DNA of 62,921 nt, filler included, from Reclinomonas americana ATCC 50394 (GCA_048213135.1; 11 parts of 3 records of this genome joined end to end with filler, not necessarily neighbours in it), one strand, 5' to 3'. Positions 22,218 through 28,200 are shown, counted from the whole stretch's first letter. The notes: generated by a model not told the origin, from the letters alone. Numbers and translations are program-made.

Positions 22218-25200
22218 TCATTTATATTCAATGTCCTCAAGCACACAGAAGTCAACGCCGCTGTAAACCTCCGCCGAGACATCTTGATCGTATTCGTCGT
22301 CGTCACTCGTACGGGTACCATCGTCGCCTGCTTCTTCATCCTCATCCGGATCCTTCACGTGTGCAAATGCAGCGATGTCGTCAGCAACAAGTCGACCCCG
22401 ACTCCAGTCCATTGGCGGGGGCGCGGCATCGTGCAGAGGCTGTCCGGATCCGGCGACTGAGTCCGGCCGCAGCTCTCCAGCCAACGCCTCCTGACCGGCC
22501 GCGGGCGCTACCTTCCCGCGACGTACACCACTCTCGTGTGCGTGAGATGCCATCGTAAACAAGTCGCTCTGGGCGCCAGATCGCCTCTTGTACTTGTCAC
22601 GAACTGACATCACCCTTGACGACGTTACCGCCTCCTTCACGATCGCCAGCGTCGCTCCATGACGCGCGGCAAACTTTGCAGCCTCCTCTTGACAATTCTT
22701 GCGTGACTCGCACGAGGCGGCGGCCGTAAAAATCTGAGTTTTTAGGTGAATGCCGTCGATCGGCATTGTGCGCAGAATGATGTCGCGGTTCATCCAGCCG
22801 TCGACGAGTGCGCCATCCCCGCCACCGCGGCCGTCACCAGCAGCGTATCCCGAGTGTTTCCACACCGGCGCATGTGGAATACCATTCGCGATCTCCGACA
22901 TCGCAGTGTCCACAACTCGGGCACGAGCGGAGTGATACTGCAAGGCAAACAATCGCAAGTGAGCGCAAAAGACAATGTGTGCGTGCCACTGCCAGAGTGG
23001 TGATCACGAGCAGACATGCATATGTAGAGAACCTACCGTCGCAGCATCCGGTGCGCCAGTAAAGCTACCTTGCACAATCGTCGCGAAAAAGTGCTCAGTT
23101 CGCAACGTCGTCAACGCACGGCAACATCCGAGTGCAATGAAGTCGAGCAACTTGCGCGCCTCTTCCTCAGATAACAAAAAGTATCGTCGCAGAAGAGCAT
23201 TCAGCTTGCCAGCGCGCTGAAATGTCGTGAGGCCGAAATTCGCAGACTGCGCATGTCAGCGAGGTAAAATCGTGGAGGTCAGTGTCTTGTGTGCAAGACA
23301 TATATTCCGGTGAGCAAATCCGCAACATCACGGGTCACTGAACGGCCGCTCTCCACGGCTGCCGTGCGACGACCTGAAAGTGCACGGTAATAATTGGTTT
23401 TCTCGCGAGCAGCATCAACTGCACTTAGGATCTCTTGCGCCGAGAAGACCTGCAAAGTTGCATAATTTTTCAATAGCCCTGAGCGTCGCACTAACGTTAC
23501 GTTAACACGACAGAAAACACCCACCAGCATTTCGTTCACCCGCGCATAGCCCGACTGTAGGATGCCACACGCACTGTTGGCATCGCCCGCTGGAGTCTGC
23601 ATAAGGTCACGCACAAGACTTAGTCGAACACGAACACACCGCTTCAAATTAGGGGCATCACAGATCGCCACATATGTGTTCCACACCTTTTCGTCTCGTA
23701 CACCCGAGAGTGTAAGAGTGAGATATATAGCACGCAGATAACGCGAAACAGGCCCGTTCACGTCGAACACATTCATCACTCGCAGGGCACAGAATTCGCG
23801 GTCGACAATAAGGCAACATACGGCGGATACAGCGCAAAGATGCAGGCCAGCGGCTCCAAATCTGGCAGACGCCAAGCCGCACCCGTCACTAAACTCGAAA
23901 TGGTCGTACCGGCCGCACAACAATTGAGGTTGGGAAAACCCGTAGCGAGTAGCACTCTCGTCAAAACCCATAGACATCACAAACATCCGGCCATGGTTAT
24001 CTACAAGCGGCGAGAGAATATAAGCGACAGCACACGTGCAGGTCTACATGCAATGCTGTAAGCAAAAACTCAGGAACATGGCGAACCTGACACAAACACA
24101 TTCTTGTACGTCAGCATGTTTGCATCGCACGGCTCCTTCGTTGCCGAGAAGCATCCAGAATCCACGCTGAGGGCAGTTGGCACGAAATCCAATAGCGTCA
24201 CCTTCACACCCAAGCGAAGGTGACCTTCAGTACCAGCACGCAAGCTGGTGATAAGAGTCGGCTTCGTCGCTTCCACTGGCACAGTGATTGCCCACTCGGA
24301 TTTCTGGGAGCCACGTCGGTGCTTGTCCGGCGGTATGCGGCGACCAATCAGATACGAGATGATGTAACCCCCGACCGCCCGCCGATTGCCGAGGTTATCG
24401 TCAAAGTGGACGATTCCACCCAGCGCAACAGTGAGCACGAGATGGCACTCGCAGTATTTTCAGTCTTGAGCTGCAATTACAATCATATGATCAGCAAGTG
24501 GATCATCATATTCTCAAGCGCGCATGTGCACGTGATATCAACAAGCAAATTACTCACGCTCAAGGTGGATGAAAGAGCGATTCTGGAGGTGTTCCCGAAA
24601 ACCGTGTACAACAGCCATGCCGGTAACCGACTGTGTCACTCCCTGATGTGTCGCAAGCTCGAGCAGCTGGCAGTAGCCGGAATCAAACAACTGCGACTCG
24701 TCGCAGTGGATCAGTCTGTCATCAAACAAGCGCGTTTGGTGCCAGTACTGGTGCACGTCGTGGGCTGGTGCGGCGAGACTCATCATGACAACTGACGGGC
24801 GTGTTCTGTGAATGTCGTCCTTGTTCCAGTCCGCAAACTCGACAGCGGCGGTGGATGCCATTGATCGGACGCGACCAACAATCTGTGCACGAATGCAGTG
24901 ATGAGAGACATCAGCGACATAGAAGCAGGTGGTCTCTCTCTCTCTCTCTCTCTCTCTCTCTCTCTNNNNNNNNNNNNNNNNNNNNCTCGTCTCTCTCTCT
25001 CTCTCTCTCTCACACACACACACACACACACACACACACACACACACACACACACACACACACACACACACACACACACACACACACACACACACACACA
25101 TACACATACACACACATACACACATTTTCTCTCCACATGCGTCTGTCAGGAGCTCTGTGGTCCATCTCTCTGCCTCCTAATCATACACGCACCATTGGCG

Positions 25201-28200
25201 CACCAAGCTTGGCGTGCTCCAAGGACACCATCACCAGCATATCGTCACACGCATAGGCGGCTTGAGTAACACTCTGGGAGTAGCTGACATCACCAGCCTG
25301 CGGGACACCGTCACGACTGCATCCAGGAAGTCGATCATCACGGATCACAAGGGTTTTGACGACATAGGCACTGGTCGAGCCGCCTCTTGGCTGGCACATT
25401 TGTCGCAAGCTTCCATTGTCGACGATGAGAAAGTCGCACTGCAGACAGGTCGGAATTCGAAAAGGTAATCGTGAGACACAGAAGCAAACTATGCGCACTG
25501 CGCGTTTCACGCGTGCGCAGATGGCCAGGCACAAGTGCACTCACCCGACTTTCAGAGGCGGATATTGCTGTGATATTCACAAAGCGCGCTGTGCTCACAT
25601 TCCCATCGACAAGTTGACGAGTTTCGTGCTCAACGCCAACAAGAGGTGTCACCTTCGGCGGCGATTTGGGATCAACCACCAGGATTCGATTCTTGGTCGC
25701 CAGAATCAATTGCAGGTCATATCTCACGGCGACGCAGCGCGCATCACGCAGTGGTCGCACGCCACCGCTGCCAAGACTTCCGTTGATCACGGCATCGTAT
25801 GGCCGGGTGGTGTGGATCGCAGGTACCATCGTCGTAAGAACAACTCCGGCAGATTCAAGAGCCTGTTCACGCGTGAAGCAAGTGGGAGAAGAGAAGCAGT
25901 GAGTGACACTGTCAAGATCAATCGCGTTACCACGCGCACTCGTGATGTATTTGGATGAATTCGCAGCGAGTACGCGTGCGATAGAACAAACGTGCGAGTA
26001 CGGGGAAATAAATCACCTTCACGGTATGTGGCCCACAAAAATCAACAGCGTGTTGTGGGCTCATTGGATCCCGATGGCGCATGGCTTCCGCCGGAATGCG
26101 CCTCAGCAGCTCGTACACCTTGCAGATTGAGGTGGCAAAAGATCGCGACAGCCGCTGGTCATTCTGGCGTTGATTGTGCAGGTCACACACGTCCGACGGC
26201 ATGGAGGAAAGAAGTGAACGGACAACGTCGCCAAAGAAATAATTGCCGTGTACGTCGCTGATCAAGCACTCCAAGTTGTTGCGGAGATTCTTGCCAAGGT
26301 GCGGCGGATCGCCGATGCAGCCAAGCTCCCGCACACAAACCATAGTTGGTGCAAGGCCATCTGTCGTGAATTCGAACAAGAGCAGTCGCTCAGACGTAAG
26401 AATCGTGTGGGAGCACAGTCTCAAGCAAATACACAACGCGCGCGCAACTGGCAAATATTTGAAAATCTTCCACCCGACCACGCTGTTGCATGGCTCTGTG
26501 GTGCACAGAAGCATCGGCAACAAGACTCAGAATGCACACACGGATGCACGGTTCGTTATTCCTGGCACACTCGTCACATTTTCGCAGATGCATGAGAGTG
26601 CTAGTGTGGCCTCTTCGGCGACATGAGTCGCACACGTCTTGGATGCCGTCCCTGCTGCGAGTTTCACACTCTGCAATCGAAGCGAGCAGACAGTCACTTT
26701 CAGCAGCACGCGCCACAGAGACTCACAGCGCAGCGCGCAAGCTGCTGCTGTTGCAGGCATGTACGCACCTCTGCACTCGGTGATGACGCACGTACCACTC
26801 AGCAACGTCAAGTATCCAGTAACTGGTGAATAAGTGACACTGGTGGTGCGCGGCGGTTTTGATCCGGAGACCAAGCGTTGCAGGCAGGCCACGCACGTTG
26901 CACAGTCGTTCACCATTGACTTAATAGTTTCAGGAAGCTGAACACGTGCTGTCGAGTCAGATCTTTAAAAGAAAACGATAACTGATGAGACTAAGCGGTG
27001 CACCTGCTTGCCAGGCAGCCTTGGTTGCAGAGACGTGCCAACCGGCAAACGGATCTCGTCGCCAGGAGTCGAGAGCGTGAACTCGACAATACTATGCACA
27101 ACAACGCTCTCTACCAGCCCTTTCAGGGACAGGAAGTCGCCTTGCGCATAGCAGTCACTGATGTTGCGGCACATTTCAGGGGTCATCTGGACACCGCCAG
27201 CGCCGATGAGCTGCAAAACAAACAGGAAGATGCAGAGTCTCAGCAATTACGAATAGCAACAGGCATCTGGCCCTCGGGAGCGAGCAGAGGAAACAACTTA
27301 CACGGTGGCCAGGAAGCTGTACCACGGACGGCCTTGTTCCTTTCTCGTCAAAAGATCCGAGAGCAAATACGTTGTACACGCCAGGCGCGGTCTCGTGCAC
27401 ACACTGCGGAGCTCGGGCAAGTGCGCCGATTAAGAAAGTTCGCAGGGCCAGGGGGCCAATGCCCTGTAACGTGCGAGCTGCCCATAGATCTGAAAGCAAA
27501 GTGCGCTCGTGGAAGGTGCCCATTACAAGCCGATTGGCAAGTGGACCATTTGCCTTTCGGTCTTCGTCGACTGATGAGTTGGAAGCTTGCCCCTGCGCCA
27601 CAGAAAGGCGTGGGGCTGTATAGACCGTAGACGCATATGCGCCACACACACACACACACACACACACACACACACACACACACACACACACACACACACA
27701 CACACACACACACACACACACACACACACACACACACACACACACACACACACACACACACACACACACACACACACACACACACACACACGACGTACGT
27801 ACGTACGTACGTACGTACGACGACGACGACGTACGTACTACTACTACTACACGACACACACACACACACACACACACACGACGTACGACNNNNNNNNNNN
27901 NNNNNNNNNNNNNNCCGACGACGAACGACGGTACGGTACGGTACGTACGACGTACGTACGTACGACGTACGACGTACGACGACGACACACACACACACAC
28001 ACACACACACACACACACACACACACACACACACACACACACACACACACACACACACACACACACACACACACACACACACACACACACACACACACAC
28101 ACACACACACACACACACACACAAGAAAATGCAACCAAGAGTAAGTCATACTGGTGCCAACGGGCATGCTTCCATTCAACAAGCGCACTCACCAGAACCA

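Follow-up and report, generated by a model that had tools for sequence, protein, structure and literature searches.

We analysed a 62,921-nt stretch of DNA from Reclinomonas americana ATCC 50394 (GCA_048213135.1), referred to below as the window, and concentrated on a minus-strand locus whose exons may derive from a P-element/THAP9-type DDE transposase. The locus lies within a scaffold piece (4321-30284) of this draft eukaryotic sequence, with many runs of N and with gaps on both sides. An earlier note, made from the same DNA, had proposed that an NHL-repeat β-propeller is inserted in the catalytic core of the transposase. That observation and its first interpretation were partly supported, and the arrangement as it stands is a moderately interesting lead, not a case.

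The P/THAP9 signature and the gene model

The string DPPHLGKNLRN (26310-26278, minus strand) in the exon that we call A matches D-x-P-H-L-x-K-x-x-R-N, a pattern that we took to be the P/THAP9 signature and then tested. It occurs once in the six-frame translation of the window, where 4.7e-5 occurrences were expected. A metagenome scan with the back-translated signature preceded by F-x (F-x-D-x-P-H-L-x-K-x-x-R-N) returned 119 loci with 110 signature matches, most of them in the shared context ...FFSD.PHL.KT.RNC.... When long open reading frames (ORFs) fetched in this way were searched against Pfam, TNP-like_RNaseH_N was matched in 12 of 12, TNP-like_GBD in 11 and TNP-like_RNaseH_C in 6, and the signature fell where RNaseH_N meets the insertion domain. 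The signature is a real, family-specific mark of the P/THAP9 type. In the protein Atlas, the exon A frame retrieved TNP-like_GBD/RNaseH_N clusters first (0.93), and the ten best hits with an assigned family were all TNP-like. The back-translated pattern with F-x in front is also a handy probe for the family, since several of the metagenome frames were full-length (700-960 aa).

We built a P-family model of 464 positions from the 12 signature-fetched ORFs and scored it against 1176 six-frame pieces of the window. The exon A frame was the best match (E 0.0098; 11.8 bits), over model positions 175-189 only. Downstream, EHFF in exon 7 (23096-23085) is a candidate for the catalytic Glu. The earlier note had predicted this residue, and EHFFATI-VQGSFTGAPDAATV indeed aligned Glu on Glu with the family consensus EnlFsivRsiGrrsdnPtav (p 0.0097); in the catalytic-Glu sub-model the exon 7 frame was a weak match, 8th of the 1176 pieces with 3.0 bits. 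Upstream, LVAD (26524-26510) in a putative further exon is a candidate for the second catalytic Asp, 40 residues before the signature D, compared with a spacing of 41 in the family model. That exon was not recognised by the family model (p 0.085; outside the top 60 for the second-Asp sub-model), and the first catalytic Asp was not found by its sub-model among the 1176 pieces. FDVN (23767-23756, exon 6) was considered as the F-D-x-x-N stretch of the family; it is off by one residue and unscored, and was kept as an idea only.

The locus resembles the P element and THAP9 (PF21787, PF21788, PF21789) in the signature at the RNaseH_N/insertion-domain border, in an E-x-x-F...G...P stretch downstream in the right order, and in a candidate for the second Asp at nearly the family spacing. 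It differs from them in that none of the family's domains was matched in Pfam, in that no THAP domain, helix-turn-helix (HTH), first Asp or terminal repeats were found, and in its many introns. The transposase identification of the earlier note is supported by the signature, by the Atlas result and weakly by the catalytic-Glu stretch; the Pfam domains, the first and second Asp, THAP and HTH were not recognised. Judged by sequence, a strong and a weak putative landmark of the P type bracket the segment in question, on one strand and in the expected order.

All of the peptides on which the earlier note had based its propeller are present in the minus-strand translation, between the signature and EHFF. 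LVG...LVDGNVSTARFVNITAIS closes exon 2, FLIVDNGSLRQ opens exon 3, VPTALSVD...VFVS closes exon 5, NHGRMF opens exon 6, and LLCG...FSDGCGLASARF...CLIVDREFCALRV lies within exon 6. From 25862 down to 23770, the segment consists of separate minus-strand open frames in different phases, and the quoted strings become continuous only when GT-AG introns are removed. We picked donors and acceptors by their consensus look alone and computed the phases only afterwards. The donors were GTGAGT (twice), GTGCGT, GTGATT, GTTCGC and GTAGGT, and the acceptors were a pyrimidine tract followed by CAG or TAG. All seven GT-AG junctions were in phase, with exons A, 2, 3, 7 and 8 joined in phase 0 and exons 4, 5 and 6 in phase 1. 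The introns clear of the assembly gap measured 85-154 nt; the acceptor of intron 3 is ambiguous and falls inside the GA run. The resulting model is given in Table 1.

Table 1. Coordinates of the proposed exons, open frames and contig linkers
Feature	Position	Strand	Details
Upstream exon (U), putative	26474-26670	-	placed by splice sites and frame; ends ...CILSLVADASVHHRAMQQRGR
Exon A, 124 aa	26017-26388	-	signature DPPHLGKNLRN; donor AAG/GTGATT, phase 0
Exon 2, 106 aa	25545-25862	-	phase 0 at both ends; NRILVVD; ends with LVDGNVSTARFVNITAIS
Exon 3, 82 aa	25193-25438	-	begins CDFLIVDNGSLRQ, including FLIVDNGSLRQ at start; donor ATG/GTGCGT
Intron 3	24934-25192	-	(CA)n and (GA)n runs; 20-N assembly gap 24966-24985
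Exon 4, 125 aa + 1 base	24558-24933	-	begins TTCFYVADVSHHCIRAQIVG, core 24927-24886; donor GTGAGT, phase 1
Exon 5, optional or broken	24087-24470	-	acceptor and donor phase 1; ends ...VPTALSVD...NVFVS
Exon 6	23282-24000	-	begins NHGRMFVMS; FSDGCGLASARF...CLIVDREFCALRV; tail of ~160 aa
Exon 7, 60 aa	23037-23216	-	contains ...ALTTLRTEHFFATIVQGSFTGAPDAATV; EHFF 23096-23085
Exon 8, 239 aa, last exon	22221-22937	-	strongly acidic end ...DPDEDEEAGDDGTRTSDDDEYDQD...; stop TGA 22220-22218
Open frames carrying the quoted peptides	25341-26012, 25184-25540, 24553-25176, 24073-24459, 23282-24043	-	
Contig linkers (ten)	4221-4320, 30285-30384, 34067-34166, 39139-39238, 42446-42545, 46868-46967, 49508-49607, 53805-53904, 57743-57842, 60578-60677		N44-TTAATTAATTAA-N44

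The product of exons 2-3-4-6 is 553 aa long and free of stops. When exon 5 is included, the length rises to 681 aa and an in-frame TGA appears once (24462-24460); the phase from the exon 4 donor to the exon 6 acceptor keeps the frame when exon 5 is skipped. Reading this TGA as a sense codon to rescue exon 5 was rejected, because TGA terminates both a Pfam-confirmed WD40 frame elsewhere in the window and exon 8. A codon score trained on that WD40 frame (4323-6890, plus strand) ranked the proposed frame best of the three same-strand frames in all eight exons, and the score of exon 8 was among the best of all exons. Exon 8 matched no family in Pfam or in the P-family model. The C-terminus of the product is acidic, as is the C-terminal domain of P transposase according to excerpts of PMC7776569. 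Exon 7 has no Met of its own and must therefore be spliced to an upstream exon.

In the P family, the RNase H fold is split, after the signature, by an all-helical insertion domain of ~190 residues. In excerpts of two papers (PMC7776569, PMC10824691), this domain is given as residues 339-528 of the fly enzyme, where it is described as almost entirely helical, and as S415-T604 of human THAP9. In our gene model ~685 aa separate the signature from EHFF, and exon 5 would bring this to 813 aa. Six reference ORFs contain both landmarks, and in these 182-209 aa lie between the signature and RNaseH_C. The interval at the locus is therefore ~3.5-4 times that of reference P-type ORFs, and the excess of ~500-600 aa is what exons 2-6 encode. 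Unlike the P-family insertion domain, its content is not visibly a helical GTP-binding domain.

NHL likeness of the intervening exons

To score the extra segment we used an NHL blade model of 52 positions, built from 188 distinct blades of 65 loci with PF01436 matches in two bacterial phyla. Its consensus is the very pattern that the earlier note had described. Among the 1176 unspliced six-frame pieces of the window, the exon 4 frame ranked first (10.3 bits, E 0.029), and the next piece scored 3.1 bits. The matching stretch, CFYVADVSHHCIR, had not been quoted in the earlier note; it fits the blade core l-y-V-a-D-x-x-n-h-r-I-R and, in 56-aa windows, scored 13.1 bits compared with a maximum of 4.1 bits in 13,931 background windows. 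The spliced product scored 10.1 bits with the same model (p 3e-5), and none of 1000 shuffles reached this score; nearly all of it came from the single CFYVADVSHHCIR stretch at the start of exon 4. An hhalign comparison gave E 2.7e-4 over 14 columns at the same place, and a second match (E 0.19) crossed the exon 2/3 junction. By sequence, there is at least one NHL-type blade core beyond chance; the three stretches quoted in the earlier note were at background level.

Further NHL-type blades in the insert are plausible. Several other stretches fit D-G-x4-A-R-F ... l-I-V-D by eye, and the exon 2/3 junction rebuilds a spacing of 19 between A-R-F and I-V-D, the same as in unspliced exon 6 (18 in the model consensus). 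Minor NHL peaks scored 3.0-4.6 bits, against the background maximum of 4.1. When the spliced product was compared by phmmer with 341 ORFs from NHL loci, every one of the top 12 was an NHL ORF; for 100 shuffled queries, NHL ORFs made up an average of 0.14 of the top 10, and at most 0.6. In the Atlas, exon 6 residues 16-254 retrieved NHL clusters first, at 0.79.

The segment had also been described as beta-rich. In a composition index calculated from a propensity table, the insert scored +0.026, compared with +0.031 for NHL propeller regions (standard deviation (sd) 0.035, n = 39) and -0.009 for P-family insertion domains (maximum 0.022, n = 12). On this index the insert falls among the NHL propellers and not among the P-family insertion domains, with a margin of ~1.5 sd; the description is backed by the index only.

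Single unspliced exons modelled with AlphaFold2 had a predicted local distance difference test (pLDDT) score of 30.9 (exon 6) or 41.1 (exon A), too low for use. When the peptides of exons 2 and 3 were co-folded, the score was 0.50, versus 0.00 for the best of three controls, with runs agreeing in at least 55% of contacts and a partner pLDDT of at least 40. This result was classed as weak support: among 78 solved complexes 51 reach the co-folding mark as a whole, as do 2 among 108 mismatched pairs, and passes at 0.60 or below comprised 5 of the 78 solved complexes and all 4 passing mismatches of 180.

Compared with the six-bladed NHL propellers (PF01436; bacterial samples), the insert is similar in that CFYVADVSHHCIR fits the blade core of the 188-blade model. 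It differs in that every piece is under the Pfam reporting level, only one blade is significant, and there is no regular period or self-repeat. TRIM-NHL proteins such as Brat and LIN-41 belong to the same group of NHL propellers.

Readings of the locus

We favour, with a probability of roughly 0.4, a single spliced gene derived from a P/THAP9 transposase, the insertion domain of which has been expanded by a degenerate NHL-like repeat module. A single many-exon gene of the P-element/THAP9 DDE type, or a recently inactivated one, would run on the minus strand from ~26670 to 22218, and the ~500-600 extra residues of exons 2-6 would sit inside the insertion domain or replace it. The extra part is read as a degenerate NHL-like module because it combines a beta-leaning composition with one clear NHL strand motif (l-y-V-a-D-x-x-n-h-x-I-R) and fainter ones; going by these features, it is probably a propeller. 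We infer a single mRNA for all exons, a propeller fold for the extra part and a module that protrudes from the insertion domain. In P transposase the insertion domain lies against the junction of transposon and target DNA, where the module could serve as a docking site for a protein or nucleic-acid partner.

The results that follow weigh against this reading, either directly or by favouring one of its rivals. On the transposase side, the match of exon A to the family model is partly circular, because the ORFs of the model were fetched by the same motif. When the motif was cut out, a composite of the flanking exons gave no hit to the P-family model, and the expected exons were picked out neither by the two Asp sub-models (first and second) nor by those for the two halves of the insertion domain. 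Pfam TNP-like_RNaseH_N, GBD and RNaseH_C were matched by none of 34 minus-strand pieces at E<=10, in a scan that took exons singly and in which matches above E ~0.1 were mostly filtered out. No minus-strand frame as far as 30283 matched THAP (PF05485) or Tnp_P_element (PF12017) in Pfam; repeats and a gap interrupt the gene in its 5′ part. Sequence searches of the PDB with the exon A, exon 7 and upstream frames found neither a transposase nor a propeller. Beyond the 15-residue motif, no transposase domain was detectable with Pfam or with our own family model. A second copy was not found within the window, and no terminal inverted repeats were found among the 25 longest of 197 inverted pairs, almost all of which were microsatellite. 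Under the favoured reading, the unrecognisable core, the absence of terminal repeats and of a second copy in view, and the stop in exon 5 make an active transposase less likely than a derivative that has been domesticated or is decaying.

The most probable of the alternatives, which we nevertheless consider doubtful, is that there is one gene whose insertion domain has undergone a lineage-specific and largely unrecognisable expansion, the extra 500-600 residues being no propeller and containing one NHL-like strand motif and a few look-alike strings by chance. Several results agree with this or speak against the favoured reading. Only one stretch of 12-14 residues is significant, and the hhalign probability for it is low (42-46%). 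A Pfam search for NHL, which the earlier note had suggested, gave no match to PF01436 or to any other family at E<=10 in the 34 minus-strand pieces. The frames of the quoted strings ranked 57 (exon 2), 58 (exon 6), 173 (exon 5) and 267 (exon 3) of 1176 in the blade model, which is background. Blade-to-blade self-similarity, the internal repeat signal, was not above shuffles (best 33, shuffle mean 34), and the scoring peaks at ~60, 195 and 315 in the product are irregular, unlike the period of most bacterial blades, which lie 40-67 aa apart. Neither a propeller nor a transposase turned up when the PDB was searched by sequence with exon 2 and with the beginning of exon 6, and the Atlas level of 0.79 is reached by shuffled proteins a third of the time. 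Against this alternative stand the NHL ORFs in all of the top 12 phmmer places, the pointer to NHL from a different exon (exon 6) in the Atlas, the unit at the exon 2/3 junction with the exon 6 spacing, and the weakly supportive co-folding score.

We regard as unlikely that the locus comprises two or three units, with an NHL-like gene nested in an intron of an old P-type gene or between its relic exons. Such a gene would start with a Met of exon 2 (TTMVPAIH), would finish at the 23281-23279 stop and would never have been part of the transposase protein. Exons 2-6 do contain their own stop codon and a possible start. The reading frame of exon 6 runs into that stop, so a phase-0 donor before it is needed to reach exon 7; several phase-0 donors could bypass the stop, none of them strong. 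The phase-0 donor of exon A is in phase with the phase-0 acceptor of exon 7, so that exons 2-6 could be skipped, the exon A frame read unspliced stops at 25929-25927, and nothing but the motif ties exon A to a working transposase. However, the junction of exons A and 2 is in phase and combines a good donor (AAG/GTGATT) with a long pyrimidine tract and a CAG acceptor, and the exon nearest to exon 7 on the upstream side, which the latter needs, is exon 6. Moreover, a direct join of exons A and 7 would leave ~138 aa between motif and Glu, below the 182-209 aa of the references.

It also seems unlikely that a P/THAP9-superfamily DDE protein has acquired, through the gain of phase-0 exons, a complete NHL-type propeller within the insertion domain that splits its RNase H fold. 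If it were present, the grafted propeller would replace or supplement GTP in positioning DNA or in recruiting a partner at the active site, and the protein would be a one-chain counterpart of the RAG1 core and its RAG2 propeller.

The least probable reading is that no working gene exists and that the locus is a decayed P-type relic in a repeat-rich, gapped draft, its frames, splice-like sites and NHL-like strings being partly due to chance. Exon 5 carries its in-frame TGA three codons past the acceptor, and the locus contains an assembly gap and microsatellites. Frames of at least 180 aa are common (131 in the 62.9-kb window), also on the opposite strand of the locus, and frame length of ~200 aa alone therefore proves little; in exons 3 and 4, one opposite-strand frame has a slightly higher codon score. 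No homologue was found in any protein or contig search. A phmmer search of 1.84 billion representatives, with the exon A frame as query, found no relative; its sole match, P0001, a tandem-repeat surface-type protein aligned in six short stretches, was judged spurious. Word-indexed searches were empty for the exon 6 frame and the exon A frame against longer proteins and for exon 6 residues 16-110 against proteins of near lengths (E<=10 for the exon A frame and for residues 16-110), and protein searches of genome, metagenome and viral contigs found no homologue either. Against a dead relic stand the seven of seven in-phase junctions, the 553 aa open over four exons, the preference of the codon score for the proposed same-strand frame in eight of eight exons, and the NHL signal at p 3e-5.

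If a P/THAP9-derived gene with an NHL-like module is the right reading, a P-family insertion domain with a large beta-repeat module would mean that this position tolerates the grafting of domains. It would also place a DDE core and a propeller naturally in one chain. RAG1 is a DDE recombinase core that works with RAG2, a partner with a six-bladed Kelch propeller. The likeness would lie in a DDE/RNase H core and a propeller acting together at DNA; the difference is that the RAG propeller is a separate, Kelch-type protein and not an NHL-like module within the insertion domain. The insertion domains of Hermes, Tn5 and RAG1 are compact and mainly helical, and the segment at the locus differs from them in being several times longer and beta-leaning in composition. 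In the gene model, the extra part occupies the same β5/α4 topological place as the insertion domains of these other DDE transposases, which the available excerpts of PMC7776569 describe as structurally similar to one another. Full-text literature searches, in which hits were judged mostly from titles and the openings of abstracts, turned up no paper that places a propeller within the insertion domain of a P-type or other DDE transposase.

Other features of the window

Long (CA)n and (GA)n microsatellites and an ACGT-rich repeat occupy 24986-25150 and 27640-28140 on the minus strand. They flank small gaps (24966-24985 and 27890-27914) that lie within the gene or just upstream of it, and sequence may be missing at both. 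Further upstream, an open frame at 28688-29134 (minus strand) shows a C-x2-C ... H-x4-H spacing (VECLLCG...LRHAEAH) with the look of a BED- or C2H2-like zinc finger and had no Pfam match at E<=10. This frame may belong to a separate gene or form the DNA-binding N-terminus of the gene at the locus. On the plus strand, frames of ~200 aa at 24196-24795 and 25368-25958 lie opposite exons 2-5 without a family match, and probably just shadow the coding sequence of the minus strand; Pfam assigned no family to the plus-strand frames at the locus, the one TilS_C match (E 0.095) being under its cut-off.

The ten linkers in the window are identical, with stop codons in each of the six frames. The window consists of contigs strung together without a known order, and neighbourhood across linkers is therefore meaningless. 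Scans of the whole window with Rfam and for tRNAs were empty. A 403-aa frame at 52068-53279 (minus strand) had a weak ankyrin-repeat match (E 8e-4, under the cut-off). The WD40 frame used to train the codon score is unbroken over 855 aa and contains at least 13 WD40 repeats (Pfam WD40, E 1.3e-145); its 5′ end is cut by a contig linker, and it terminates in TGA.

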